Below are positions 3,192-63,115 of a stretch of 64,000 nucleotides of DNA, piece after piece. Source of the DNA: Dictyostelium discoideum (lineage: Eukaryota); assembly GCA_000004695.1 (NCBI GenBank), contig CM000150.2, positions 64,001-128,000 on the forward strand. Direction: 5' to 3'. A program made the translations under genes and the position numbers. Below the pieces are notes generated by a model that saw only the letters and a program-made list of their open reading frames with translations, did no database searches and was not told the DNA's origin. The stretch's first letter is position 1. Each line of letters opens with the position of its first letter.

Positions 3192-3394
3192 ATCGTTTAA
3201 ATAAAAAAAATTAATATGATTTCACATACTCAACTTTAATTTTTTCTTTTTTTTTTAAATCTTTATTTAATTTTTATTTTAAATTTTTATTTTTAATTTT
3301 TATTTTTAAAGTGATATTATTAATATATCTTATTAAGTTAACTTTATAATATAAATTTATAAATGCACTTTTAAATTGAATTTTATAAATATAA

Positions 3395-3790
3395 TTAATA
3401 AGAATACTTAATAATTGTACTTATAAAGAGTACATTATAATTATAATTAGTAATTACGCTTAATAAGTATACTTAATAATAATACTTAATAAGTATACTT
3501 ATTAAGTATACTTATTAATTATACTTAATAATTATACTTAATAAGTATACTTATTAAGTATACTTATTAATTATACTTAATAATTATACTTAATAAGTAT
3601 ACTAATTAATTATACTTAATAATTATACTTAATAATTATACTTAGTAAGTATACTTAATAAGTATACTTAATAAGTGTATTTAATAAGTATACTTAATAA
3701 GTATACTTTATAAGTATATTTAATAAGTATACTTAAAAAGTATACTTTATAATTATACTTATTAAGTACACTTTATAATAGTACTATTTA
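3395..3790. repeat. Array of the self-complementary 12-mer TAAGTATACTTA and variants, forming the subterminal repeats of the alpha element.
   Basis: The same array lies beside the other alpha-type termini at 8800-8930, 4400-4486 and 49510-49830. Confidence 0.8.
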
Positions 3791-3837
3791 CATTCCTACT
3801 TTAAAGATGCTTTTAAGTATTTTTTTTCGCCCCTGTG

Positions 3838-4192
3838 CAACACAACAAACAAATAACAACACAACAAACAAATAACACAATAACAACACAACAAACACAA
3901 TAACAACACAACAAACACAATAACAACACAATAACAAAACAACTTCAAAATAAATTACAACACAATAACAACACAATAACAACACTGTAGCCGAACACAA
4001 CAGGTACGACAACAACAATAATTACAACATAATAACAACACAACAACAGGTAGGACTGCAACATCAATAAAACAGCAACATCAATAGTACAACAACAGCA
4101 ATAATAAAGCAACAATAATAATACAACATCAATAATACAGCAACAGCAATAGAAATTACATAGCAATATCAATAATACAACAACCACAGAGT
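3838..4192. repeat. (CAA)n / AACACAACA-rich satellite-like array.
   Basis: Visible tandem repeats read directly. The overlapping Cys/Val-rich ORFs at 3788-4187 are artefacts of this repeat. Confidence 0.8.
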
Positions 4193-4395: not shown

Positions 4396-4913
4396 ATAAA
4401 TATATATATTAATAAGTATACTTAAAAAGTAATACTTTATAAGTACACTTAATAAGTATACTTAATAAGTGTACTTATTAAGTAGTACCACAGCAAAGAA
4501 AAATGAAAAAAAAAAAAAAAATTTAATTATTTGTTTTGCATATTTATATTATAAGTATAAACATACATATAAAAAAAGATTTTTTATTTTTTATTTTTTA
4601 TAATTAATAAACAATTAACGAGTGCACAGGTATATTATTGCATTAGTGTAGTTTTACAATTAATTGGGCAGATTTTATAGTTTTTTTTTAATATTTTAAA
4701 AAGAAAAAGGTATAGACAGGGTCATAGGTTCCCCGTCATTTTTTGAAAATGGGGTATATCCCTCTAAATATAAAATTCTAAGTACTAAATCATATATCTA
4801 CTTGCTATAATGCTAAAATTTGAATAAAATGAAAAAAAAAAAAAAAAAAAACGTAAAAACTCGAGGAAAAAAAAAAAAAAAAAATTATTTTTAATTTCCA
4901 GCCAGCAAACAAA

Positions 4914-7109
4914 ATGAATTTAAATAACATATCATGCATTAATTGCAGAGAAAAATTAAAGAATTTTTAAAATATTATTATTCATTATATTATGCATAAA
5001 AATATATGTCCATTTTGTCTTGCATATTACCGTTCTTATAAACAATTTTATGATGTAAATGGACATTTCAACACCAAAAAATGTAAAAATGAACAAAATA
5101 AAATTATTACAAATAATCAAAAAAGAGATAGCTTTTATAAAAAATTAATGGATATTACTGGTGAAAAAATAAAATATCCAACAAATGATCCAGATGACCC
5201 ATGTAAACATTTATGTAACCAAAACCAAGATGAAATTTTTTATCAAGAAAATAATGAAAATAATGAAAATAATCAAACAATTGATAATGAAGAAAATCAT
5301 GATATAATTGGGTTGGTACATAGTGAAGATGAAAACAATGAAATTAGAATAGATGAAAATGAAGCAAACATTAATAATGAAAATAATGAAAATAATGAAA
5401 ATGAAAATGCTCAAAACGAACCAATAAATAATAATCTAAATAATAATTTAGATAATGAAAAATCAAAAAAAAAATTAAATGAAACTGAAATTGAATTTTT
5501 AATGTTGGGAATTGAAAACTCAATAAGTTTAAAGCTACTTGAAAAATTTAAAAGTTTTATTGACAAAAATAAAACCAATTTAAATCAAATAAGATACACA
5601 CCTCAATATATGGATAAATTATTTATTGAAGATTTTCAAATAAAAGGAGAAACATTTATAAATAAAAATTATGATCACTCAATTTTTTATTTTGAAATTA
5701 AAAAAGTATTAGAAACTTTATTAAATAAAAAGCAATTTTTTGAAAGAATAGATTTTGATACAGATTTTGAAACTGGAATTTATACAAATTATAAAAGTGG
5801 TCAACAATTTAAAGATTTAAAAAATAAAAATAAAAATAAAATTGTTTTACTTAGAATTTTCACTGATAGTATGCAGTGTCAAAACAAGAAAGATTATACT
5901 ATAATGCTGGATATAGAAAATTATATTGGAAATGAATTTAAAAATAATAAATTATTATTATTTGTAGTACCAAATGATTGGTTACTTAATTTTCATCAAA
6001 CAATTAGGGCATTGTTTTCATCTTTTATTGGTAATGGCTTTAATTTAATTATTGAAAATGAACAAATAGATGTTGTACCGTTTGGACTAACAATGGATAT
6101 TCCAGAATTTAGAGCATCGTGTAAACTTAATGGACATAATTCAAATGAATATGCATGTCACACATGTGAAAAACCAAGAGATGGTTTATTTATTTGCAAA
6201 TCAGGTACATTAAGAAAACAAGAAGATATTACAAATTTTCACTCCAACAAACCAAATTATGCTGAATTAAATGCTGATATAGAATTAAAAAAAGTATGGG
6301 AAAAAAAAGCAAAAGATATTGGTATCAAAGGTGTGGACAGAGGGTGGGTCGAACCCTTGTCTATTAATTATTTAAAAACACAACCAGACATATTACATAA
6401 TATTTTATTAGGTGTCGCGCAAAGATGTTTAAATTACATTTTTGATAAATATAAAAATAAAATTGCAAATTTTTTAAATAATTTAAAAAATGCAAAAATA
6501 ATAGATAACAAACCAAAACCTTCAATTTCACTATTTGCAAATAAAACAAGGAAAGGAAGAGAGAATAGATCAATATTATATTACCTTTTAATATCAATTA
6601 AAAATCAAATATCAAATGATGATTTTTTAATTATGGAACAATTAGTAACTATATGTTTTAAATTATATAGTGACTCTTTTGATGAAAATGATTTAAATTC
6701 ACTTCAAGTATTAATTGAATCGTTTAATGCAAAAGTAAATTTAATTACTGAAACAGAAATAATGAATTTCCACTTGTTGTTACATTATCCAATCTATATA
6801 AAAAATTGGGGAGCACCAAAATACACTTCAGCTGAAACTTTTGAAGCACAATTATCAAGAATTAAAAATTATTTAAAAAATAATACAAATAATAGGGATG
6901 AACAATATGAAAGGGTTACCAAATTAAACATGGTGAAATTTTTTAATTCAGTAGATAAATTAAAAAGTATTGAACCTGAAAGTACAGCATTAATTATTGG
7001 TTACAAAATAAAAAATCCAGATAATTTAGATAACATAAAAATTAAATTAGATTCATTATTTCAAAACTATAAAAATATAACTTTTCACTCATCAATTAAA
7101 AATAATTAA
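4914..7109 (+). CDS. Large ORF of the beta element (transposase-like, about 730 aa). This copy carries a nonsense codon (TAA) at 4968-4970.
   Basis: The inverted paralog at 32164..31142 reads straight through (…REKLKNFKNIIIHYIMHKNICPFCL). This copy has a T-to-A change that creates the TAA stop, and the supplied ORF 4992-7109 covers the rest. Confidence 0.6.
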
Positions 7110-8399: not shown

Positions 8400-8799
8400 G
8401 TGCTTTTAAATGTAATTATTAATAATCTTTAAAATTCAATTTTTAAGGAGCTTTAAAATGTAATTATTAATATAATTTTTAATCATATTTTTAAGTAATT
8501 TTAAAGAGCATTATAAAGTTAATTTTAAAGGGCATTTTAAACTTAATTTTAAAGAGCATTATAAAGGTAATTTTAAAGGTCATTTTAAAGGTAATTTTCA
8601 AGGTCATTTTAAAGTTAATTTTAAAGGTGATTTTAAAGGTAATTTTAAAGGTGATTTTAAAGGTGATTTTAAAGGTGATTTTAAAGGTCATTTAAATAAT
8701 TGCTTTTAAATTAATTTTTAAGTGACTTTTTTATAGGACTTTAAATCCACTTTTAATTTAATTTAAAGTTGCTTTAAAGGTGTAATTTTCATCGCTGTG
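8400..8799 (+). repeat. Subterminal short tandem repeats (AATTTTAAAGGTGATTTTAAAGG…) of the beta and MITE right ends.
   Basis: The same repeats occur in inverted form at 28523-28900 and inside the MITE copies. The supplied 'MTFKITFKITFK' ORFs come from this repeat. Confidence 0.75.
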
Positions 8800-8976
8800 A
8801 CTTATAAAGTATATTTATTAAGTATACTTATTAATTGTACTTATTAAGTATTATTTATTAAGTATACTTATTAATTGTACTTATTAAGTATTACTTATTA
8901 AGTATACTTATTAATATATATTAAAAAGAGTACTTGGATTTAAAGGTGCTTTAAAGTGTTGATTTTCGCCGCTGTG
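8800..8976 (+). mobile_element. Alpha-type right-end fragment with a TAAGTATACTTA array and a terminus …TTTTCGCCGCTGTG.
   Basis: It has the same architecture as 3700-3837. Confidence 0.5.
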
Positions 8977-9178
8977 GTTGATCACAGTGCAGATACGTTT
9001 CGATTTTAAAATTCACATCTACCCTTGCACCTTTATTGTGTAGCAATTTGACCAGATCTACCTTATTTTTTTTCACTGCCCAATTCAACAACTTCTCACC
9101 GTTATCATTAATCGCAACATCTAAGTCTGGGAGTTTACTCTTGGAAGAAAGGTAAGTTGTTAGAAGAAGGTTTAACAA
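8977..9178 (-). pseudogene. Ankyrin-repeat protein fragment whose C-terminus is cut off by the transposon end.
   Basis: The motif LLNWAVKKNKVDLVKLLHNKGARVD is ankyrin-like. The frame runs into the TIR at 8976. Confidence 0.35.
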
Positions 9179-9299
9179 ATCATTACTCGGCCATGCGAAG
9201 CCAAACCCAGAGAGGTTTTTTTTTCACTATCTCGTTAAGCATTTCTGTAATAACGTAATCGCTATTACCCTCACCACGCAGTTCGATTATCATGGCAAT

Positions 9300-9503
9300 T
9301 TATTCTGGGTTAAGTTGTTTCTTTTGGCTTTTACTAAATGCTGATCTACCAAGAGATAATTGTAACTTGGCGCTACACGAATTTGAGCAGGTTGGTGGCG
9401 TACCGGTTTCCATTCTAGCTAAATAGTTCTTAGCGAGGATGCGTTTGAGCGCTCCACATAATGGACAGTAGAAGTCGAAGTATACACCGCCTTTCTCTTT
9501 CAA
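9300..9503 (-). CDS. Small C4 zinc-ribbon protein (CPLC…CSNSC). The start codon is uncertain, and a frameshifted paralog lies in G3/G4.
   Basis: Taken from the supplied ORF. The upstream frame is open with no ATG. A diverged homolog of its C-terminal part is seen in 37560-37611 and 38645-38700. Confidence 0.35.
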   Translation of the reverse strand: MKEKGGVYFDFYCPLCGALKRILAKNYLARMETGTPPTCSNSCSAKLQLSLGRSAFSKSQKKQLNPE

Positions 9504-9861
9504 AAATCTGCGATAACGTTCACTCTTAATTCGATTCTCTTCTACTGTAAGAATCTGATATCGTCATTGGTCCTATCTTCATCCATGTGATCTACTTGTT
9601 CATTGGGCGATAATAATCTACCCAACTTCACCGACATTAAGTATTATGCGTAAGTCCGAAACGATCATGGCTGCTGTTGAAGCGTTTTCTTTTATCAGAA
9701 CACTCGATTAGATATCCGAGAAGCCATTGTTCTTTAAAACGGTAACTGCAACTCTAAACGCATTTTGACTCCTTAATGGTCTATCAAGGTAGTCATGTAG
9801 GACTAAGAATATCTGCCACCGAAACCAATCATTCTACCAACTGAACTACACGAGCAAATAT

Positions 9862-9931
9862 GGAATGAGACCTAGGAGTCGAACCCAGGACCGCCGGATT
9901 TGAATCCTATGCTCAACCAAGTGAGCTCATA
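9862..9931 (-). tRNA. tRNA-like 3' portion with a T-arm (CTGGG-TTCGACT-CCTAG), acceptor strand and encoded CCA. Its 5' part is non-canonical or disrupted at the DIRS junction. A second tRNA 5'-half-like sequence (GCTCGTGTAGTTCAGTTGGTAGAAT) lies immediately downstream at about 9826-9852.
   Basis: Folded by hand. No complete cloverleaf was obtained. Confidence 0.3.
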
Positions 9932-10541
9932 TTTAAAAATTTAATTTATTAAATTATATTTGAATTTCCCAAATATTTAAGATAATTTTTTAGAATGTTC
10001 TAGAACATTCGAAGAATAAAAAATTTTCGAAAGAAAAGTAAAAATTTCGAACCGGCACAATGACGCGATCATTGCGCAAGGTCGAAAAATTAAAAATTTA
10101 ATTTATTAAATTATATTTTATATTAAATATATATATATATATTATGAATAACATTTATTTATTTGAATTTCCCAAATATTTAAGATAATTTTTTAGAATG
10201 TTCTAGAACATTCGAAGAATAAAAAATTTTCGAAAGAAAAGTAAAAATTTCGAACCGGCACAATGACGCGATAATTGCGCAAGGTCGAAAAACTGAAAAA
10301 TTCCGAACCGACACTATGCACAAATTTGTGAAGGGTCGAAAACTCTTATTTTTTTGAGTTTTGCGAAATTTTTAAGAAAATAAAAACGTATAAATAGTGG
10401 CACTAAAAACTAAAACAATTTGATTTATGGAATTCCGACTAAGGGCGGGTGGGATGGGACTAATATATATATATATATTTAATATAAAATATAATTTAAT
10501 AAATTAAATTTTTAATTTATATTATCATATATATATATATA

Positions 10542-26697: not shown

Positions 26698-28522
26698 GAT
26701 AGCTTTTATAAAAAATTAATGGATATTACTGGTGAAAAAATAAAATATCCAACAAATGATCCAGATGACCCATGTAAACATTTATGTAACCAAAACCAGA
26801 TGAAATTTTTTATCAAGAAAATAATGAAAATAATGAAAATAATCAAACAATTGATAATGAAGAAAATCATGATACAATTGGGTTGGTACATAGTGAAGAT
26901 GAAAACAATGAAATTATAATGGATCAAAATGAAGCAAACATTAATAATGAAAATAATGAAAATAATGAAAATGAAAATTGTCAAAATGAACCAATAAATA
27001 ATAATCAAAATAATAATATAGATATTGAAAAATCAAAAAAAAAATTAAATGAAACTGAAATTGAATTTTTAATGTTGGGAATTGAAAACTCAATAAGTTT
27101 AAAGCTTCTTGAAAAATTTAAAAGTTTTATTGACAAAAATAAAACTAATTTAAATCAAATAAGATACACACCTCAATATATTGATAAATTATTTATGGAA
27201 GATTTTCAAATAAAAGGAGAAACATTTATAAATAAAAATTATGATCACTCAATTTTTTATTTTGAAATTAAAAAAGTATTAGAAACTTTATTAAATAAAA
27301 AGCAATTTTTTGAAAGAATAGATTTTGATACAGATTTTGAAACTGGAATTTATACAAATTATAAAAGTGGTCAACAATTTAAAGATTTAAAAAATAAAAA
27401 TAAAAATAAAATTGTTTTACTTAGAATATTCACTGATAGTATGCAGTGTCAAAACAAGAAAGATTATACTATAATGCTGGATACAGAAAATTATATTGGA
27501 AATTAATTTAAAAATAATAAATTATTATTATTTGTAGTACCAAATGATTGGTTACTTAATTTCCATCAAACAATTAGGGCATTGTTTTCATCTTTTATTG
27601 GTAATGGCTTTAATTTAATTATTGAAAATGAGCAAATAGATGTTGTACCGTTTGGACTGACAATGGATATTCCAGAATTTAGAGCATCGTGTAAACTTAA
27701 TGGACATAATCCAAATGAATATGCATGTCACACATGTGACAAACCAAGATATGGTTTATTTATTTGCAAATCAGGTACATTAAGAAAACAAGAAGATATT
27801 ACAAATTTTCACTCCACCAAACCAAATTATGCTGAACTAAATGCTGATATAGAATTAAAAAAAGTATGGGAAAAAAAAGCAAAAGATATTGGTATCAAAG
27901 GTGTGGACAGAGGGTGGGTCGAACCCTTGTCCATTAATTATTTAAAAACACAGCCGGACATTTTACATAATATTTTATAAGGTGTCGCACAAAGGTGTTT
28001 AAATTACATTTTTGATAAATATAAAAATAAAATTGCAAATTTTTTAAATAATTTAAAAAATGCAAAAATAATAGATAACAAACCAAAACCAGCAATTTCA
28101 CTATTTGCAAATAAAACAAGGAAAGGAAGAGATAATAGATCAATATTATATTACCTTTTGATGTCAATTAAAAATCAAATATCAAATGATGATTTTTTAA
28201 TTATGGAATAATTAGTAACTATATGTTTTAAATTATACAGTGACTCTTTTGATGAAAATGATTTAAATTCACTTCAAGAATTAATTGAAAGTAAATTTAA
28301 TTACTGAAACAGAAATAATGAATTTCCACTTGTAATTACATTATCCAATTTATATAAAAAATTTAGGTGCTCCAAAATACACTTCAGCTGAAACTTTTGA
28401 AGCACAATTATCAAGAATTAAAAATTATTTAAATAATAATACAAATAATAGGGATGAACAATATGAAAGGGTTTCCAAAGAAAACATGGTGAAATTTTTT
28501 AATTCAGTAGATAAATTAAAAA
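26698..28522 (+). mobile_element. Beta DNA-transposon fragment, 5'-truncated, with multiple stop codons.
   Basis: Colinear with 5130-6960. ORF pieces lie at 26883-27506 and 27582-27980. Confidence 0.7.
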
Positions 28523-29421
28523 CACAGCGATGAAAGTTACACCTTTAAAGCAACTTTAAATTAAATTAAAGTGGATTTAAAGTCCTATAAAAAAGTCACT
28601 TAAAAATTAATTTAAAAGCAATTTTTTAAATGACCTTTAAAATCACCTTTAAAATCACCTTTAAAATTACCTTTAAAATCACCTTTAAAATTAACTTTAA
28701 AATGACCTTGAAAATTACCTTTATAATGCTCTTTAAAATTAACTTTAAAATGCCCTTTAAAATTACCTTTATAATGCTCTTTAAAATTACCTTTAAAATG
28801 ACCTTTAAAATGACCTTTAAAATTACCTTTATAATTTTTTTTAAAATTAAGTTTAAAATGCCCTTTAAAATTAACTTTATAATGCTCTTTAAAATTACTT
28901 AAAAATATGATTAAAAACTATATTAATAATTACATTTTAAATCTCCTTAAAAATTGAATTTTAAAGTTTATTAATAATTACATTTAAAAGCACCTTATTA
29001 ATAATGCAAAAATAAATAAAAAAATTTTAAAAATTATTTTAAAACTATAGTATGAAATAAAATTTTATGTGAACAATAAAATACACAGATATATTATTTT
29101 TTAATAATAAAATTTATTTTTAAATTTTAAAAATTATTTAAAACTTTTATTGGGAAGAATTTAAGTAAAGTGCAGAATGAGGAAATTGAAATGCTTCTTG
29201 TGCATCTTTTCTCATTTTAGCCTTAGAGTCAAATTTACTACTAAAATCATTTAATATTGAAATTAATCTCTTTATTAAAGGAACTGAATCTGGGTACCAG
29301 TGTTTCTCTTCACCTGTTTAACAAGAGTCAACAAACTCTTTTATGAAAATATCATTTTGATAATTTTCATAATTAATGTGGCTGAGAAAAAGAGAAAGTA
29401 AAGCAGGGGAAAACTGTATTT

Positions 29422-29786: not shown

Positions 29787-32603
29787 ATTAATCTGGTAAC
29801 ATACATCGCCATCTGAAAAGTATTTACTTTGACAAACTTTCTGAAGACTTTCGTATTCCAATATGTATTGAAATCATTTTCGCTTTTTCAGTCTGCCCGA
29901 AAATGAAAAAAAATTAAAAAAAATCATTTTTTACATAAAAATGTAAAAATTATGTAAAAAAGTTTTTAATTTTTTGATTTATTATTTTTTGAAGCCGAGA
30001 TTTTATCGTGGCATTTGTAAATTATAAGGTAATTGGTATCATCAATTTGAATTGGTAAAACATTATTTAGAATATTATCATATGTAATATAATTTAATTC
30101 ATTTGAAAGAAAATGGTATTTGTTAAATTGGTCACCAACATATTTGTCAAATAATTTAATAATATTGCATGTTTTATTATGTTATCATCCATTTCAATCA
30201 TTGATATTGAATTGATAATACCTGACCATCTACCTGAAAGTTCATTATCTGATGCAACTTCAACTGCATCACCAACATTGTATATTTCTTTATTATTTTT
30301 AATTGATGAGTGATTATTTATATTTTTATAATTTTGAAATAATGAATCTAATTTAATTTTTATGTTATCTAAATTATCTGGATTTTTTATTTTGTTACCA
30401 ATAATTAAAGCTGTACTTTCAATTTCAATACTTTTTAATTTATCTACTGATTTAAAAAATTTCACCATGTTTAATTTGGTAACCCTTTCATATTGTTCGT
30501 CCCTATTATTTGTATTATTATTTAAATAATTTTTAATTCTTGAGAATTGTGCTTCAAAAGTTTCAGCTGAAGTGTATTTTGGTGCACCCCAATTTTTTAT
30601 ATAAATTGGATAATGTAACAACAAGTGGAAATTCATTATTTCTGTTACTTTAAACATCTTTGCGCGACACCTAATAAAATATGTAAAATGTCTGGTTGTG
30701 TTTTTAAATAATTAATGGACAAGGGTTCGACCCACCCTCTGTCCACACCTTTGATACCAATATCTTTTGCTTTTTTTCCCATACTTTTTTTAATTCTATA
30801 TCAGCATTTAGTTCAGCATAATTTGGTTTGGTGGAGTGAAAATTTGTAATATCTTCTTGTTTTCTTAATGTACCTGATTTGCAAATAAATAAACCATATC
30901 TTGGTTTGTCACATGTGTGACATGCATATTCATTTGGATTATGTCCATTAAGTTTACACGATGCTCTAAATTCTGGAATATCCATTGTCAGTCCAAACGG
31001 TACAACATCTATTTGCTCATTTTCAATAATTAAATTAAAGCCATTACCAATAAAAGATGAAAACAATGCCCTAATTGTTTGATGGAAATTAAGTAACCAA
31101 TCATTTGGTACTACAAATAATAATAATTTATTATTTTTAAATTAATTTCCAATATAATTTTCTGTATCCAGCATTATAGTATAATCTTTCTTGTTTTGAC
31201 ACTGCATACTATCAGTGAATATTCTAAGTAAAACAATTTTATTTTTATTTTTATTTTTTAAATCTTTAAATTGTTGACCACTTTTATAATTTGTATAAAT
31301 TCCAGTTTCAAAATCTGTATCAAAATCTATTCTTTCAAAAAATTGCTTTTTATTTAATAAAGTTTCTAATACTTTTTTAATTTCAAAATAAAAAATTGAG
31401 TGATCATAATTTTTATTTATAAATGTTTCTCCTTTTATTTGAAAATCTTCCATAAATAATTTATCAATATATTGAGGTGTGTATCTTATTTGATTTAAAT
31501 TAGTTTTATTTTTGTCAATAAAACTTTTAAATTTTTCAAGAAGCTTTAAACTTATTGAGTTTTCAATTCCCAACATTAAAAATTCAATTTCAGTTCCATT
31601 TAATTTTTTTTTTGATTTTTCATTATCTAAATTATTATTAAGATTATTATTTATTGGTTCGTTTTGAGCATTTTCATTTTCATTATTTTCATTATTTTCA
31701 TTATTAATGTTTGCTTCATTTTCATCTATTCTAATTTCATTGTTTTCATCTTCACTATGTACCAACCCAATTATATCATGATTTTCTTCATTATCAATTG
31801 TTTGATTATTTTCATTATTTTCATTATTTTCTTGATAAAAAATTTCATCTTGGTTTTGGTTACATAAATGTTTACATGGGTCATCTGGATCATTTGTTGG
31901 ATATTTTATTTTTTCACCAGTAATATCCACTAATTTTTTATAAAAGCTATCTCTTTTTTGATTATTTGTAATAATTTTATTTTGTTCATTTTTACATTTT
32001 TTGGTGTTGAAATGTCCATTTACATCATAAAATTGTTTATAAGAACGGTAATATGCAAGACAAAATGGACATATATTTTTATGCATAATATAATGAATAA
32101 TAATATTTTTAAAATTCTTTAATTTTTCTCTGCAATTAATGCATGACATGTTATTTAAATTCATTTTGTTTGCTGGCTGGAAATTAAAAATAATATTTTT
32201 TTTTTTTTTTTCCTCGAGTTTTTACGTTTTTTTTTTTTTTTTTTTTTCATTTTATTCAAATTTTAGCATTTTAGCAAGTAGATATATGATTTAGTACTTA
32301 GAATTTTATATTTAGAGGGATATACCCCATTTTCAAAAAATGACCGGGAACCTATGACCCTGTCTATACCTTTTTCTTTTTAAAATATTAAAAAAAAAAA
32401 CTATAAAATCTGCCCAATTTATTGTAAAACTACACTAATGCAATAATATACATGTGCACTCGTTAATTGTTTATTAATTATAAAAAATAAAAAATAAAAA
32501 ATCTTTTTTTATATGTATGTTTATACTTATAATATAAATATGAAAAACAAATAATTAAATTTTTTTTTTTTTTTTTTTGATATTTTTCGCTTTTTGAAAT
32601 GAA
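28523..32603 (-). mobile_element. Beta DNA transposon, inverted near-full-length copy. It includes the right-end subterminal repeats (28523-28900).
   Basis: It is the reverse complement of 4489-8799. The large ORF is in pieces at 32164..31142, 31066..30704 and 30657..30094. Gene 2 retains its middle and last exons but lacks exon 1. The terminal sequence at about 32580-32603 is degenerate. Confidence 0.65.
31142..32164 (-). pseudogene. Beta large-ORF N-terminal portion. The N-terminus (MNLNNMSCINCREKLKNFKNIII…) is intact and the downstream part is frameshifted.
   Basis: Supplied ORF, homologous to 4914-5940. Confidence 0.6.
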
Positions 32604-34858: not shown

Positions 34859-35108
34859 CTACTGTAGCAAAGCACGTTTGAAATATAAATTAAATACCAC
34901 AACTAGAACGTTAGGGTTACGTATAGCATACTCAATTAACCAGCGAGTTTTCCCAGTTTGACGTGAGCCACTGAAGCCAATTGTAAACAACTCTCGTAAA
35001 TGACATGCCTTAGTACCGCCAAGATTATTAGCAGCGCTACGCATTATTAATCGCAATACTTTTCTCAAGTTCTTGAACTATCGCATCATAATCAATTGTA
35101 GACGTCAT
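34859..35108 (-). pseudogene. P-loop NTPase pseudogene with a Walker A motif GFSGSRQTGKT. The N-terminal ORF MTSTIDYDAIVQELEKSIAINNA stops and then frameshifts into the Walker A frame.
   Basis: The SRQxGKT signature resembles the Walker A motif of T4 gp17 large terminase (SRQLGKT). An SD sequence GAGGT lies 9 nt upstream of the ATG. The G5 paralog (61993-62139) is truncated by a TAA stop after the Walker A serine-arginine. Confidence 0.4.
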
Positions 35109-35120
35109 GATTTTTTTACC

Positions 35121-35288
35121 TCATTTATTTAAGTGGTTGTATGAACTCACAGGGTTATAGTCCTCATAAACAGGAAGTAGTAGACCAGGTGCATTAGGCA
35201 TTGTTATTAATACACGCTGCCCACGCACATAAGGTTGGTTGTTAACATATTTAAAATCAGTTGCCACATAGCCTTTTGGAATTTCCAT
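35121..35288 (-). CDS. Small ORF of 55 aa (MEIPKGYVATDFKYVNNQPYVRGQRVL…). Its stop codon overlaps the RBS of the next gene.
   Basis: An intact paralog lies in G5 (62151-62328) with an in-frame 3-codon indel. The gene layout is bacterial-style. Confidence 0.4.
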   Translation of the reverse strand: MEIPKGYVATDFKYVNNQPYVRGQRVLITMPNAPGLLLPVYEDYNPVSSYNHLNK

Positions 35289-35530
35289 GGTAAACTAATC
35301 CTCTTAATAGGGGACCGATGGCGGGTTGACCGTCAGACTTCTACAACACCCAACCACGTAATATCGGAGTGCTTCTGTCATTGTTATTTTATTTTTAGAT
35401 GCTACGCGGTTGATTGTGGTTTACTTACACCAAAGTGTAAGCGTCGGTTATTTGCTGGCATACTTTCAGCCACGTCCCAAGTCTCCAATTCACCGCCTTC
35501 CTGCTATTAATGGTGCCTAATGACGGACAT

Positions 35531-35568
35531 TCATCTCAAAATAAAACCAGGAGGGGTAAAACCCTCCT
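35531..35568 (-). terminator. Rho-independent terminator-like hairpin (AGGAGGG-GTAAAA-CCCTCCT) followed on the minus strand by TTTTATTTT.
   Basis: A 7-bp GC-rich stem plus a T-run, conserved in the G5 paralog at 62567-62601. Confidence 0.45.
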
Positions 35569-35889
35569 ATATACTAATCTTACGGACGTGGTGATATCGA
35601 ATACCACATTCTGTAATTTGGATCATGCTGGGTGTTATTTAATGTTTTGGCTATTGCTATAACCGACCGAGCTACTGTGTTTCCACAGAAATGACTCGAA
35701 CCATCGACCCACAGCGTGTATATAGTGAGCTGGTGGTTTAACCTCCCAAGGGCGGTGTTCGACTATTCGTCAAACGAAGACAAGCTTTTTAATTTAATTA
35801 AACTACCACACCATCTTCAATTTCGATTTTGGTAGAAGAGTTAGATTCAGTTAATCAATGTTGGCTTCGAAATCCAGAATCTCTTTTTC

Positions 35890-36078
35890 CTACTGCTTGA
35901 TTACTTTGCTGATCTCCAGCGGCTGATAACGTTCGATAACTGGATTAACGAACACAGCAATGGAAGCTTCATCGGCTTTCTTAGTACCGTTGAATGCTTC
36001 GGTGCGCGCGGTATTTTCACGCTGGTCAAAATTGGAGTTAGCGGTAACGTTGTGACGAGATATCGATTCGTAGTTCAC
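35890..36078 (-). CDS. Small ORF of 62 aa, probably GTG-initiated, of unknown function.
   Basis: Supplied ORF sitting in a compact gene array. Weak support. Confidence 0.25.
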   Translation of the reverse strand: MNYESISRHNVTANSNFDQRENTARTEAFNGTKKADEASIAVFVNPVIERYQPLEISKVIKQ

Positions 36079-36129
36079 TTTCTAAGCTTTGACAATATCG
36101 CGTTTCTCGCCTAATGCATTATGTGCATG

Positions 36130-36761
36130 TACAGCAAAGAAAAATCCACATTTAAAGCAAATTTAAAGCAAAGTTGATTTAAATTGGATTTAAATTGAAT
36201 TTAAAGCCGGGTTTAAAAAATTCATTTTCAAGGTAATTTTTAAGATAATTTTAAGATATTTAAAAATGCCTTTAAAATTTATTTTAAAATAATTTTAAAG
36301 AGGATTTAAAGTTGATTTAAAGTAGATTTAAAGTGAATTAAAATTTCCTTTAAATATAAATTTAAGGTTTTTAATAAAAAACATCTAATTTTAGATCAAA
36401 AAAATGGGGATAAAATATTCTATCATTTTTAAATTATCATCAAAGCAATCAAATGGTGTAATGGTTGATGAGACTACCCTTTGATTGATGAGACTACCCT
36501 TTTGGTAAATTTTCAAAAATTTCAAAAAAAAATTTTATAAAATTTATCCGTTAAATAACGGCTTCGAACTCCGGACCTCGCTTTTAAAGCCATTAAAAAG
36601 CTAATTCCTAAGGTAATTATAAAGGTAATTTATAAGGTGGTTTTAAAGTAACCTTAAAAATTACCTTTAAAATTACCTTAAAAATTGCTTTTGTACAGGA
36701 CTTTAAATTCGCTTTAAATTAAATTTAAATTTGCTTTAAAGGTGGTTTTTCTTTCACTGTG
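36130..36761 (-). mobile_element. MITE-like TIR element copy. It has the opposite orientation to 23858-24605 and is inserted between G2 and G3.
   Basis: Its termini are TACAGCAAAGAAAAATCC… and …GGTGGTTTTTCTTTCACTGTG. The interior is colinear with the 23858 copy and includes the tRNA-like core at about 36440-36500. Confidence 0.7.
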
Positions 36762-37026
36762 TAGTGTATTCTTTGCCAGCTACGGTAATAAGCGTACTAG
36801 CGTTGGACAATATCACTTTAGCAAGGATATCTTCACGCACACGAATGATATCTTGTAAACCATGGTAGTTTTCTTTGATCGCATCAGAAACCGCCCCAAC
36901 GGAATCATTGAAACCAGCTTCTTGGGCGAATTCATCAGTACCGCGAGTTAGTGAAATAAGCATCAGACCGTTGGACATGGATTTAACCGTGGCCAATGTA
37001 CGGGTAATTGAAATCTTAGTAGCCAT
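36754..37026 (-). CDS. Small ORF of 90 aa (MATKISITRTLATVKS…). Its last codons run into the inserted TIR element.
   Basis: TATAAAGG and AGGAAA lie upstream of the ATG. With the insertion removed, the frame continues three codons to a TAA stop. Confidence 0.35.
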   Translation of the reverse strand: MATKISITRTLATVKSMSNGLMLISLTRGTDEFAQEAGFNDSVGAVSDAIKENYHGLQDIIRVREDILAKVILSNASTLITVAGKEYTTQ

Positions 37027-37157
37027 TATATTTCCTTTTCCTTTATACGTTATAGACAGAGTGCCGAACCCTGTTTTAGAGAACGGTAGAGGCTTTCACT
37101 CTTAGGCTTTCATCGATCCCCGTTCGTGACCGTTTAGCGATTTCTTTAGATCTTAAT

Positions 37158-37247
37158 TGGTAGAGAATTAGAGATTCGAACTCTAGGAGCGGTTTCCCGC
37201 CCGACGGTTTTTAAGACCGTTACCTTGAACCACTCGGACAATTCTCC
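37158..37247 (-). tRNA. Type-II tRNA-like gene, probably tRNA-Leu (anticodon UAA), with a long variable arm and an encoded 3' CCA.
   Basis: Hand fold. The acceptor is GGAGAAT/ATTCTCT and the anticodon stem is ACGGT/ACCGT with loop CTTAAAA. The variable hairpin is GCGG-GAAA-CCGC. The T-arm is TAGAG-TTCGAAT-CTCTA, followed by A and CCA. The D-arm pairing is imperfect. Confidence 0.5.
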
Positions 37248-37406
37248 AATTGGGTGACACCCATTAGAATTTCACGTAGCTCTATAGCTATTACAGTCAA
37301 TACTAACACTTCACAAAAAGGCCTGGTTAACCCCTACTGATTGAACTTAGGTTGTCTTAGAGTTCCTACCAGGAAAACTGCAACTGATATCATTGTTTGG
37401 TGATTA

Positions 37407-37439
37407 CAAAAAAGACCAGTGTTATTGGCTGGTCTTTTT
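37407..37439. terminator. Bidirectional intrinsic-terminator-like hairpin AAAAAAGACCAG-TGTTATTGG-CTGGTCTTTTT. A mirrored copy lies in the palindrome arm at about 37905-37940.
   Basis: An 8-bp stem flanked by an A-run and a T-run. Confidence 0.45.
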
Positions 37440-37611
37440 GAGTTATACGATACCGTTCTCTTTACGATAACGGAATATTTTTGATCTATCGATATTAAGC
37501 ATTTCTGCAATTACTTAATCGCTATTACCTCACCAAGCAGTTCGATAATCATGGCAATATGTTCTGGGTTAAGTTGTGTCTTTTGGCTTTTACTTAATGC
37601 TGATCTACCAA

Positions 37612-37739
37612 CACAGCGAAGAAAAAACCACCTTTAAATTCGCTTTAAATTAAATTTAAATTTGCTTTAAAGTCCCGAATTAAAGCAATTTTAAAGGTAA
37701 TTTTAAAGCGAATTTAAAGGTGGTTTTTTCTTCGCTGTG
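37612..37739. mobile_element. Centre of the palindrome. It is MITE left end nt 1-98, then the reverse complement of nt 31-1, joined at a TTTAAAG microhomology.
   Basis: CACAGCGAAGAAAAAACCACCTTTAAATTCG lies at 37612 and its reverse complement ends at 37739. Confidence 0.7.
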
Positions 37740-38016
37740 TTGGTAGATCAGCATTAAGTAAAAGCCAAAAGACACAACTTAACCCAGAACATATTGCCAT
37801 GATTATCGAACTGCTTGGTGAGGTAATAGCGATTAAGTAATTGCAGAAATGCTTAATATCGATAGATCAAAAATATTCCGTTATCGTAAAGAGAACGGTA
37901 TCGTATAACTCAAAAAGACCAGCCAATAACACTGGTCTTTTTTGTAATCACCAAACAATGATATCAGTTGCAGTTTTCCTGGTAGGAACTCTAAGACAAC
38001 CTAAGTTCAATCAGTA

Positions 38017-38644
38017 AAACACTAAAAATTACCTTTAAAATTACCTTTAAAATTACCTTTTTAATCGCTTTAAAAGCGAGGTCCTGAGTTCGAAGCCGTT
38101 ATTTAACGGATAAATTTTTTAAAATTTTTTTTTTTAATTTTTCAAAAATTACCAAAAGGGATTCGATCCCCCGACCCTCTATCAAAGGGTAGTCTCATCA
38201 ACCATTACACCATTTGATTGCTTTGATGAAAATTTAAAAATGATAGAATATTTTATCCCCATTTTTTTGTTCTAAAATTAGATCTTTTTTATTAAAAACC
38301 TTAAATTTATGTTTAAAGGAAATTTAAATTCACTTTAAATCTACTTTAAATCTACTTTAAATCCTATTTAAAATTAATTTAAAATAAATTTTAAAGGTAT
38401 TTTTAAATATCATAAAAATTATCTTAAAAATTACCTTAAAAATCACCTTTAAAATCACCTTTAAAATCACCTTTATAAATTTATTTTAAAGCAAATTTTA
38501 AAGGCATTTTTAAATATCTTAAAAATTACCTTAAAAATTACCTTAAAAATGAATTTTTTAAACGCGGCTTTAAATTCAATTTAAATCCAATTTAAATCAA
38601 CTTTTCTTTAAATTTGCTTTAAAGGTGCATTTTTCTTTGCTGTG
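38017..38644 (+). mobile_element. Remainder (about nt 100 to the end) of the same MITE copy, with a right terminus …TTTCTTTGCTGTG at 38644.
   Basis: Colinear with 23955-24605. Once the inverted-duplication insert is removed, the whole MITE is flanked by an AA target duplication (…CTACCAA| and |AAGAGATCC). Confidence 0.65.
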
Positions 38645-38693
38645 AAGAGATCCAGTTCTACCATTCTGGCGATGCTTGCTTGCCGATCAGTCA

Positions 38694-38808
38694 TTAACGA
38701 ATCTTCTTCAGTAACTGAGTACGAAGAATTGGATTAGCATCTCGCTTGGCTTTATCGGCCGCTGCAGTGCGTTTTGTACAGTTACCAAAATCAAAAGATT
38801 TACATGGC
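38694..38808 (-). CDS. Small ORF of 38 aa (MPCKSFDFGNCTKRTAAADKAKRDANPILRTQLLKKIR). It has a perfect RBS (GGAGG 7 nt upstream), and its stop overlaps the next start (TAATGA).
   Basis: Read directly. The downstream overlapping gene MTDRQASIARMVELDL… is interrupted by the MITE. Confidence 0.4.
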
Positions 38809-38851
38809 ATGACATCCCTCCATTGACTTAAAAGAAAAATAAGGGGATAAC

Positions 38852-39052
38852 ATGTGTTCTGGTCAAGCCATACCCTTAATGAGGGTGTTAATCTTCGTCA
38901 TAATAATTTTGATCTTTTGGAGTACTTGCATGCAGAGAGGTTATGGGGACCATCCCTACACATTATATCCGGTACTGTGTAAAACTTTACATATCAATAG
39001 ATCAAAAATAAGAGGATGTAGTACATCCCCTCTTTCAATTAAGGCAACATGA
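38852..39052 (+). CDS. Small hydrophobic ORF of 66 aa with an RBS (AAGGGG 5 nt upstream of the ATG).
   Basis: Supplied ORF. A hydrophobic stretch (LMRVLIFVIIILIFW) suggests a membrane peptide. Confidence 0.3.
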   Translation: MCSGQAIPLMRVLIFVIIILIFWSTCMQRGYGDHPYTLYPVLCKTLHINRSKIRGCSTSPLSIKAT

Positions 39053-39330
39053 CCCTAGTCAAGTAGCGCATTGTGTCACGTAATAGGGATACACGCCCGC
39101 GATTAAGATCAACAATACCGTAGTTCAAATGAATAGAATCGTTATATATACCTTCTGCGTTAAGCCTGAAGTTCAAACGCGAACGGAGCGTAGTATGAAC
39201 CTGACCTTCACTTCTGAAAATGTGTACTCGTTATCTAACGCCACATCAAAGGCAGGCCAACCTGTTAATGCTGTTGATCTTATCCCAATTACGTGAAACA
39301 ATGCGCTACTTGGCTAAGGTCATGGTGGCC
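39048..39330. repeat. Pair of imperfect inverted repeats of about 60-75 bp (39048-39125 and 39255-39330). They flank a core of about 130-190 bp that carries a 33-codon ORF with a GGAG RBS.
   Basis: The left repeat reads CATGACCCTAGTCAAGTAGCGCATTGTGTCACGTAATAGGGATA…AGATCAACAATACC. The right repeat is its reverse complement with a 14-bp indel. Confidence 0.5.
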
Positions 39331-39385
39331 AATACAACTCCACCTGTAAACCTTTCACCAACCACTTGTCATTGACTAATAACTA

Positions 39386-61924: not shown

Positions 61925-62150
61925 ATAAATTAAATTTACTAGAACGTTAGGGTTACGGATAGCATACTCAAATAACCAGCGAGTTTTCCCAGTTTAACGT
62001 GAGCCACTCAAGCCAATTGTAAACAACTCTCGTAACTGACATGCCTTAGTACCGCCAAGGTTATTAGCAGCGCTACGCTCATTATTAATCGCAATACTTT
62101 TCTCAATCGCATCATAATCGATGGTTGTCGTAGACGTCATGATTTTTTAC

Positions 62151-62328
62151 CTCATTTATTTAGGTGGTTGTATGAACCCACATGGGTATAGTCCTCATAA
62201 ACAGGAGCTACTTTTGCTGGTAGACCAGGTGCATTAAGCATTGTTTTTAATACACGCTGACCACGCACATAAGGTTGGTTGCTAACATATTTTAAATCAG
62301 TTGCCACATAGCCTTTTGGAATTTCCAT
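62151..62328 (-). CDS. Small ORF of 58 aa, paralog of 35121-35288 (MEIPKGYVATDLKYVSNQPYVRGQRVL…).
   Basis: It is intact in both diverged copies, with an in-frame indel, and the same RBS and overlap arrangement is retained. Confidence 0.4.
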
Positions 62329-62941
62329 GGTAAACTAATCCTCTAAATAGGTGACCAATGGCGGGTTTACTTCTACAACACTCAACCACGTAATGTTGGA
62401 AGTGCTTCGGTATTGTTCTTTTATTTTGAGATGCCATGCGGTTGATCGTGGTTTACTTACCCCAAAGTGTAAGTGTCGGTTATTTGCTGGCATACTTTCA
62501 GCCACTTCCCAAGTCTCCAATTCACCGCCGTCCTGCTATTAAGGGTGCCCAATGACGGACATCCATCTCAAAATAAAACTAGGAGGGGGTAAAACCCTCC
62601 TATATACTGATCTTACGGACGTGGTGATATCGAATACCACATTCTGTAATTTGGATCACACTGGGTGTTATTTACAATACCTAACGGACTGTATTTATCG
62701 TAGAAGGATCCCACTGTTGCGTTGCAATACCGTTAACAATCAACACTAAGCTGATTGTCCATACACTATTCTTCGTCGATGTATGATAAGGTAGGACAAT
62801 CCCATCAGCCGGTAGCTTATCCAATACAGCATCAACAATCAGCGCTTTGGACGGTGCTAAAATAAGGAACATCCGTTGTTAGCTTTGTTTTCCATATTTG
62901 GTTCACTGTCTTACAAACAAACCACCGGCATCTTTACCCTG

Positions 62942-62987
62942 CGTGTTACTAATAGGAATGGGGAAGGCATTCCTATTAGTAACACGC
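62942..62987. repeat. Strong hairpin or palindrome with 19-bp arms CGTGTTACTAATAGGAATG and a GGGAAGG loop.
   Basis: Read directly. Confidence 0.6.
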
Positions 62988-63115
62988 ATAACTGACGTTT
63001 TCACTAGGGGCTAATACTAATTAATATTACCATGCCAGCTACGGTGTCAATCCAGTGTGTCAAATTAGTAACAGCTTTGGAGCCATCCAGATATGACGGA
63101 ACGCCTGGGCCTGAA

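Follow-up and report, generated by a model that had tools for sequence, protein, structure and literature searches.

A probable phage-derived serine-type tRNA fossil in the DIRS-1/Skipper repeat cluster of Dictyostelium discoideum chromosome 1

The stretch of Dictyostelium discoideum chromosome 1 analysed here (GCA_000004695.1, contig CM000150.2, positions 64,001 to 128,000 of the forward strand; 64,000 nucleotides (nt), hereafter the window, whose own numbering is used throughout) carries a 90-nt type II tRNA gene with an encoded CCA at 37158-37247 on the minus strand. We consider it probable that this gene is a phage-derived fossil with a serine-type body, part of jumbo-myophage passenger DNA that now lies in the DIRS-1/Skipper repeat cluster of chromosome 1. 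The most plausible reading is that of a broken serine tRNA rather than a working leucine tRNA, and the gene most likely persists in the amoeba as a functionless fossil.

The tRNA gene and its isotype

Across the 64-kb window ARAGORN made a single tRNA call, tRNA-Leu(taa) at 37158-37247(-). Rfam independently placed the same sequence in the tRNA family RF00005 (37161-37247(-), 50.7 bits, E 6.4e-8), with a match to model positions 1-71, the full length of the model, and a score well above the gathering score of 29 bits. A first-pass annotation of the window had proposed a 90-nt tRNA-like gene at exactly these coordinates, to which the ARAGORN and Rfam calls add the minus strand. Read on that strand, the gene is GGAGAAT-TG-TCCG-AGTGGTTCA-AGGT-A-ACGGT-CTTAAAA-ACCGT-CGGGCGGGAAACCGCTCC-TAGAG-TTCGAAT-CTCTA-ATTCTCT-A-CCA. 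The structural elements of the earlier proposal are each present: a TTCGAAT T-loop, a 5-bp anticodon stem (ACGGT/ACCGT) with the loop CTTAAAA and anticodon UAA, a variable-arm hairpin (GCGG-GAAA-CCGC) with 4 bp in the minimum free energy (MFE) fold and up to 6 bp possible, and an acceptor stem followed by the discriminator A73 and an encoded CCA. The imperfect D-arm pairing that it had conceded is a U10·U25 mismatch, which together with a G1·U72 wobble makes up the structural defects of the molecule. The same Rfam model gives 59-60 bits for tRNA-Ser genes of bacteria that are intact, compared to 50.7 bits here, so that the island copy is mildly degraded. The MFE fold of the single sequence contained no cloverleaf and had a z-score of only -1.8; single-sequence MFE folding is uninformative for tRNAs, and we therefore relied on the covariance model.

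The leucine call derives from the anticodon UAA and A73 alone. Both features stand, but the isotype proposed from them is not supported, as everything else in the molecule resembles tRNA-Ser(UGA) and differs from bona fide tRNA-Leu(UAA). A tRNA-Ser, and never a tRNA-Leu, was the top match of the island tRNA in each of 5,426 complete E. coli genomes, and the strongest phage DNA matches are also annotated as tRNA-Ser. Pseudomonas tRNA-Ser(UGA) aligned over the 90 nt free of gaps at 86% identity, with near-identical D-arm, anticodon stem and T-arm. More broadly, bacterial and phage tRNA-Ser(UGA) genes (E. coli serT-type, Pseudomonas, jumbo-phage) are 80-86% identical to the island gene and share with it the 90-nt length, the 17-nt variable arm, the encoded CCA, the D-arm CCGAGTGGTTNAAGG, the T-arm AGAGTTCGAATCTCT, the pairs G2:C71 and A3:U70, the anticodon stem, and positions 32-33 and 37-38 of the anticodon loop. 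They differ from it in having UGA rather than UAA and G73 rather than A73, in the G1·U72 and U10·U25 defects of the island copy, and in a score about 9 bits higher. The alignment with the E. coli tRNA-Leu(UAA) gene leuZ, in contrast, differed in the D-arm, anticodon stem, variable arm, T-arm and acceptor stem; what leuZ and the island gene have in common is UAA, A37, A73, a type II long variable arm and an encoded CCA. A37 is also the nucleotide found in bacterial tRNA-Ser. With the anticodon masked, the first 11 nearest neighbours in our comparison set were all tRNA-Ser(UGA) and the first 14 all tRNA-Ser; the best tRNA-Ser agreed at 67 of 84 positions and the best tRNA-Leu(UAA) at 56 of 84.

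We then compared the gene with a profile of 85 distinct tRNA-Ser(UGA) genes extracted from viral contigs, which were picked by a Ser-type motif so that G35 is present in 85 of 85 by construction. The island tRNA is typical of this family in G2:C71, A3:U70, the T-loop and the length of the variable arm (17 nt in 30 of the 85). It departs from the family at four places: G35>A, G73>A, G1·U72 and U10·U25, three of which are G:C>A:T. The discriminator is G73 in 79 viral genes, A in three and T in three; 84 of 85 have G1-C72, and the G1·U72 state of the island occurs once; position 10:25 is Watson-Crick in 82, and the U·U state again occurs once. Three acceptor-stem pairs differ from those of the nearest tRNA-Ser through compensatory changes, so that the island tRNA was a distinct functional phage gene before its transfer.

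Judged by sequence, then, the body is of the serine type: the D-arm CCGAGNGGTTNAAGG, a variable arm within the 14-18 nt range, G2:C71, A3:U70 and TTCGAAT are all in place, while the anticodon is UAA and not UGA and the discriminator is A73 and not G73. For tRNA-Leu(UAA) the reverse applies, as anticodon and A73 agree but the Leu-type body (D-arm of the GGNAGAC type, T-arm of the GGTTCAAGTCC type) and an overall similarity to Leu are lacking. Because anticodon and discriminator fail for serine and the body fails for leucine, the gene should be filed as a Ser-type tRNA pseudogene that is a member of neither functional family.

Searches for the same combination elsewhere were mostly negative. The motif of a Ser-type D-arm, N7 and CTTGAAA was found in at least 120 viral contigs, whereas the corresponding motif with CTTAAAA had no match among 2.9 million viral contigs. 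In 185,579 prokaryote genomes the Ser-type D-arm with the UAA loop occurred at four loci, one of which is an intact tRNA. An exact 45-nt stretch of the island tRNA had no match in the viral contigs, nor did a fixed-spacing pattern from D-arm to T-arm, in whose place the shorter motif was used. The intact prokaryotic tRNA belongs to an array (locus L128, 2312-2861, in the alphaproteobacterial metagenome-assembled genome CBDCME010000022.1) in which three near-identical Ser-type type II bodies carry the anticodons AGG, UAA and UAC. They share one acceptor stem, A73 and CCA, score 55-64 bits and are interleaved with weak tRNA-Ala; an array with one body and several non-serine anticodons looks unusual. 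In the viral loci L007-L126, ARAGORN tRNAs of at least 80 nt beyond Ser, Leu and Tyr were Ile(tat) (six times), Trp(cca), Ser(act) and others.

Phage homology of the surrounding island

The island extends between DIRS ends at ~34615 and 39374 and has 40-43% GC, against 31% for the window, ~22% for its AT-rich parts (stretches of 21-25%) and 44-48% for the related phages. The first-pass view that the tRNA is of type II with an encoded CCA, is of bacterial or phage rather than eukaryotic nuclear type and lies within a compositionally foreign island is supported, and the source can now be named as jumbo-phage DNA. In our comparisons with phage records, the neighbours of the tRNA are homologous to phage genes and keep the gene order of those phages. 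No open reading frame (ORF) of 100 or more codons is present in 33.8-40.2 kb, and the homologies described below are those of broken ORFs.

Downstream of the tRNA, 131 nt from it and behind AAGGAAAAGGAAA, an AGGAAA-type ribosome-binding-like sequence, begin the 88 intact N-terminal codons of a PHROG 1491 homologue (36763-37026(-), PHROG E 7e-16). PHROG 1491 is annotated as 'tail fiber protein', and its counterpart in Erwinia phage AH06 is gene 217. A tblastn search with this fragment matched 146 phage records, the best being Erwinia phage Ea35-70 and its relatives (47% identity, E 7e-15), and the top matches were 143-275 kb myophages of Erwinia, Cronobacter and Salmonella; together with the PHROG 2586 search described below, the records matched are almost all from jumbo phages. 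A weak C-terminal fragment of the same gene follows at 35893-36081(-), where PHROG 1491 positions 117-178 are matched with E 0.014 and AH06 gene 217 by tblastn with 35% identity and E 1e-5. The two parts are separated by 631 nt of AT-rich host-type repeat (36131-36761, 12-nt period, 23% GC), which thus splits the homologue. Next come a short conserved motif at 35751-35795(-), 89% identical over 45 nt to the region just after AH06 gene 217, and an intergenic block at 35443-35569(-), whose counterpart in Salmonella phage SA002 precedes the PHROG 2586 gene and is 76% identical to it in DNA over 100 nt; the window block includes an intrinsic-terminator-like hairpin at 35548-35569. The PHROG 2586 homologue itself (AH06 gene 219, SA002 ACSA002_2060) is broken and lies at 34862-35120(-), with a PHROG E of 2.6e-8. 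By tblastn it matched 14 records, all of them 270-295 kb jumbo phages (SA002 48%, AH06 39% identity).

On the upstream side, the flank at 37253-37334(-) is weakly similar to the AH06 intergenic region 215/216 (69% over 88 positions, E 0.003). A bacterial-type bidirectional intrinsic terminator, A6-GACCAG-loop-CTGGTC-T5, can be read from the sequence at 37408-37439, ~165 nt upstream of the tRNA on the tRNA strand. Taken together, five blocks from window position 37334 down to 34862 on the minus strand are colinear with AH06 170.08-172.52 kb, in the order 215/216 intergenic region, 217, post-217 motif, 219, and the order is the same in SA002. The tRNA sits where AH06 has the small gene 216. Judged as a segment of an Agricanvirus- or SA002-like myophage genome of Enterobacterales, the island thus combines homology to phage protein families (39-48% identity by tblastn) and conserved gene order with genes that are truncated, interrupted and drifting neutrally, and lacks the intact, expressible genes of a live phage or prophage. 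Among 50,697 phage records there was no DNA-level match beyond short stretches, and a scan for sigma-70 promoters found 10 compared to 11.2 expected, which is not above chance.

A tubulin/FtsZ-like protein is encoded near the AH06 block, and we take AH06-type phages on this account to be nucleus-forming jumbo phages. A close parallel is the arrangement of SA002-type jumbo-phage tRNA genes, which share a type II tRNA set among small genes on the same strand, the block from PHROG 1491 to PHROG 2586, and bacterial terminators. The tRNA-Tyr of SA002 stands by the PHROG 2586 gene, whereas the amoebal copy is of another isotype, occupies another slot upstream of the PHROG 1491 homologue, and is no longer within a live phage. 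Two other explanations for a tRNA in such DNA were rejected: a mitochondrial insert, as the flanks match phage genes, and the remnant of an attP or integration site, as the tRNA is full length within a gene block of lytic-phage type.

The far end of the island, 38645-39373, is unique DNA of 41% GC, bounded by DIRS and with no detectable homologue. When this segment was joined with 8936-9947, 37250-37700, 62675-63113 and 35560-35900 in a six-frame query of all phage records, nothing matched. Both 38645-39373 and 62675-63113 (41-43% GC, beside phage pieces), which also had no hit in the protein-family searches, are likely to be further foreign DNA. Inverted copies of the 12-nt-period repeat (36131-36761 and 38015-38644, 86-91% identical) bracket the tRNA block, and related 12-nt arrays lie at 8500-8811 and 28552-28947; the repeat is possibly part of a host DNA transposon.

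Host locus, decay and duplicated fragments

The host locus is the DIRS-1/Skipper repeat cluster of chromosome 1 of D. discoideum AX4, in the centromere region. The window is rich in DIRS-type copies, 97-99% identical to one another, in which ORFs for reverse transcriptase, RNase H and tyrosine recombinase overlap, and it holds a Ty3/gypsy element (Skipper-like) at 53.3-58.7 kb. The five packed same-strand ORFs of that interval had been considered as a phage operon, a reading that was rejected in favour of this ordinary retrotransposon. The island is also present in GCA_054883475.1, an independent assembly of D. discoideum, where it is 99.87% identical and has the same junctions and an identical tRNA, which argues that the island is not an artefact. 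The only difference concerns a near-perfect palindrome at 37335-38016, whose 326-nt arms (37335-37660 and 37691-38016, 98% identical, centre near 37676) are reduced to one in that assembly, with 37722-38014 missing; this may be either a structural polymorphism or an assembly difference. Strong 'miRNA' matches at 37587-37764 and 36607-36694 were discarded as artefacts of the palindrome and of AT-rich inverted repeats, being below the gathering score and present on both strands.

The phage-homologous genes around the tRNA are broken, and a duplicated piece of them has drifted neutrally. A second, diverged copy of the PHROG 2586 region lies at 61925-63113(-), where it gives way to unrelated unique DNA of 43% GC. 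Between its 750-nt piece, 61925-62674, and 34885-35641 the identity is 88%, and indels are numerous. The 53 substitutions between the copies show no preference among codon positions (3/6/2 and 4/3/3), and the indels are 1, 1, 2, 4, 6, 8, 9 and 12 nt long; these two features point to neutral drift rather than to protein-constrained divergence. The only proteins that match ORFs of the island are D. discoideum hypotheticals, namely ACTFIT_001916 (99% identity) from GCA_054883475.1 and DDB_G0267284 from AX4; ORFs of the window had no exact counterpart in the assembly index. These gene models lie on the decayed phage fragments at 34862-35120 and 36763-37095, with DDB_G0267284 covering the broken PHROG 2586 homologue, and are probably not real amoebal genes.

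Further scraps of DNA from phage tRNA regions are scattered in the cluster and are more diverged from one another than are the DIRS copies. One of them, a unique segment of 39% GC at 8936-9947(-) that we call G1, shares 118 nt (9235-9352) with 37495-37611 of the island at 91.5% identity, and has two tRNA remnants at its end. The first-pass annotation had described a second tRNA-like remnant at 9826-9931, in tight tandem and with CCA. Such a remnant does exist, but as truncated, sub-threshold fragments of two phage-type tRNAs. The first (9928-9861(-)) is tRNA-Lys-like, ends in CCA (9863-9861) and is 83-85% identical to phage tRNA-Lys genes over ~57 nt; Rfam scored it at 18.2 bits (9872-9927(-), E 0.62), under the threshold, and it is without its 5' acceptor strand, cut where DIRS begins (~9931). 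Five bases past it lies the 5' half of another tRNA (9855 to ~9826), whose D-arm GTAGTTCAGTTGGTAGAA (9832-9849) agrees exactly with the tRNA consensus, a match that did not arise in 100 shuffles. G1 also contains a 90-codon open frame (8954-9223(-)) with an ankyrin-repeat-like stretch, KLLNWAVKKNKVDLVKLLHNKGARVDVN, and a match to phrog_9049 (E 8e-5).

Elsewhere in the window, a tandem array of ~950 nt (3197-4152) with dozens of copies of a 13-nt AT-rich TATACTTAATAAG-like unit is host satellite-like DNA. Long ORFs in DNA of 21-25% GC at 35-2041, 4992-7109, 26883-27506 and 30094-32164 had no Pfam match and are partly repeated in inverted orientation (4815-6307 and 30771-32263, 98%); a DDT-type family of Dictyostelium DNA transposons is their probable source.

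Origin, alternative readings and significance

We propose that the donor was a jumbo myophage of Enterobacterales, kin to Erwinia Ea35-70 and AH06 and to Salmonella SA002, and that its gene would have been a tRNA-Ser(UGA) in a slot between the upstream terminator and the PHROG 1491 gene. A place behind a terminator and ahead of a gene of the structural module is usual for phage tRNAs. Going by phage biology, host enzymes would have carried out its transcription and processing, and the tRNA would have supplemented those of the host during infection. Entry into the amoeba probably took place when this bacterivore took up DNA of the phage or of an infected bacterium, which could have been joined by end-joining into repeat DNA. 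All selection would then have been lost and AT-biased changes would have accumulated, among them G35>A (UGA to UAA), G73>A, C72>T and a change at position 25. At present the tRNA would do nothing in the amoeba and persist as a molecular fossil.

Several points weigh against this account. The slot is occupied by a small ORF in AH06, and the tRNA-Tyr of SA002 lies two genes further on; a search of viral contigs for relatives of the PHROG 1491 fragment found no closer donor phage, and hence no phage with a tRNA in exactly this slot. The nearest-neighbour comparison is biased because the profile loci were selected by a Ser-type motif, and the ancestral anticodon cannot be read directly, given the three compensatory acceptor-pair changes. 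For random decay it is somewhat suspicious that A35 and A73 both point toward leucine identity, and the sole intact prokaryotic look-alike, in the alphaproteobacterial array, likewise pairs UAA with A73. Finally, box A has one mismatch and box B two, so that binding of RNA polymerase III (Pol III) and TFIIIC is possible; as these boxes are conserved parts of any tRNA, however, their match is no proof of promoter activity.

Some of these observations would fit a donor-phage tRNA that already had UAA and A73, in other words a Ser-type body reading UUA that was either recharged by leucyl-tRNA synthetase or inserted serine at leucine codons. Positions 35 and 73 weigh most in the distinction of leucine from serine identity, and it is at these that the two non-structural departures fall. 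The intact alphaproteobacterial tRNA (64 bits) combines a Ser-type D-arm with UAA and A73 in an array of one body and three anticodons, long-arm tRNAs with non-Ser, non-Leu and non-Tyr anticodons exist in viral loci, and A73 is found in three of the 85 viral serine bodies. We nevertheless regard this origin as doubtful, as the absence of the UAA form from the viral contigs contrasts with the UGA form found there, the two structural defects, each in a state seen in one of 85 genes, indicate that decay has touched the island copy, and the ~7% neutral divergence and the indels of the neighbouring DNA lead one to expect several changes in 90 nt; three of the four departures, moreover, run in the direction expected in a 22% GC genome. 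A stronger form of the idea, in which the gene would be an undamaged phage tRNA of an undescribed kind, a Ser-type type II body fitted with UAA and A73 as part of a device by which large phages or mobile elements reassign codons or mistranslate in a programmed way, seems to us quite unlikely; the alphaproteobacterial array, with one such body bearing AGG, UAA and UAC, resembles it.

A role for the gene in the amoeba, either as a Pol III-transcribed tRNA for UUA, the commonest leucine codon of this AT-rich genome, or as a TFIIIC landmark such as a chromatin boundary within the centromeric repeats, would be compatible with the nearly intact boxes A and B, with a cloverleaf that still scores well above the Rfam threshold, and with the identity of the tRNA and 400 nt around it in the two assemblies. 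In fission yeast, tRNA genes serve as centromere boundaries. In the centromere study of Glöckner & Heidel 2009 (PMC2665215), one centromeric tRNA gene is called 'functional' by tRNAscan, and TRE and DGLT-A elements are described as homing to active D. discoideum tRNA genes, with TRE near-absent from centromeres. We judge such a role very unlikely. No TRE or DGLT-A lies beside the island tRNA and no non-LTR element is among the scanned ORFs; no run of four or more T, as expected of a Pol III terminator, occurs within 457 nt downstream, and there is no good external B box nearby. The encoded CCA and the prokaryotic flanks are also foreign to eukaryotic nuclear tRNA genes, in which CCA is not encoded and an oligo-T terminator follows. 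Charging by seryl-tRNA synthetase would make a Ser-type body with a leucine anticodon a source of mistranslation, and the tRNAs of G1, which lie in similar DNA, are clearly dead. A native D. discoideum tRNA, nuclear or mitochondrial, for instance a reverse-transcribed CCA-ended copy, would suit a cluster full of reverse-transcriptase elements and would account for the CCA, and eukaryotic cytosolic tRNA-Leu D-arms do look like bacterial tRNA-Ser D-arms. Such an origin is highly improbable in view of the colinear position of the tRNA between phage-homologous blocks, with a terminator upstream and a ribosome-binding-like sequence and phage gene downstream, of the 86% identity to Pseudomonas tRNA-Ser, of A37 and the 17-nt variable arm, as in bacterial Ser, and of the 5-nt spacing of the G1 remnants, which is typical of phage arrays. 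Phage DNA from food bacteria or a cloning host might also have been mis-joined to DIRS reads during assembly, given that D. discoideum is grown on enterobacteria, that the palindrome differs between assemblies, and that the centromere sequence was rebuilt from shotgun reads according to PMC2665215. This we find barely credible, since the independent assembly has the same island and junctions, the phage genes are no longer whole, an AT-rich host-type repeat having split one of them, pieces are duplicated within the cluster at 88% and (118 nt) 91.5% identity, and phage matches at the DNA level do not go beyond short stretches.

We therefore retain the reading of the gene as a phage-derived, Ser-type tRNA fossil. 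The tRNA hits of the chromosome 1 centromere have been published: according to PMC2665215, that centromere is DIRS-rich and each centromere has two tRNA hits, mostly pseudogenes, on whose nature the paper makes no comment. Those tRNA genes, on chromosomes 1 and 2, share the DIRS-rich chromosome 1 setting with the present loci; the paper gives them without isotype, origin or phage-like flanks, and they may be the same loci. In the literature that could be searched we found no report of a phage origin of centromeric tRNAs, or of jumbo-phage DNA around them, in Dictyostelium. Like other foreign-DNA fossils of eukaryotes, such as organelle and bacterial inserts or giant-virus fragments in amoebae, the island has a distinct composition, broken genes, neutral drift and fragmentation by host transposons. 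Unlike those, its source is a tailed jumbo bacteriophage and not an organelle, an endosymbiont or a eukaryotic virus.

The find, which we class as a horizontally acquired DNA fossil, is no new mechanism and indicates no amoebal function. For genome annotation, it gives a clear origin and a corrected isotype to a 'centromeric tRNA gene' of D. discoideum that had been left unexplained: annotation pipelines will report tRNA-Leu(UAA) where there is most likely a dead tRNA-Ser, and the gene models DDB_G0267284 and ACTFIT_001916 should be re-annotated. In a broader view, it documents a eukaryotic nuclear genome in which DNA from a lytic jumbo bacteriophage has become fixed. Transfer in this direction is rare, and it agrees with the 'you are what you eat' view of amoebae that feed on bacteria. 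The DIRS centromere cluster is in this sense a graveyard in which foreign DNA can persist, duplicate and drift.

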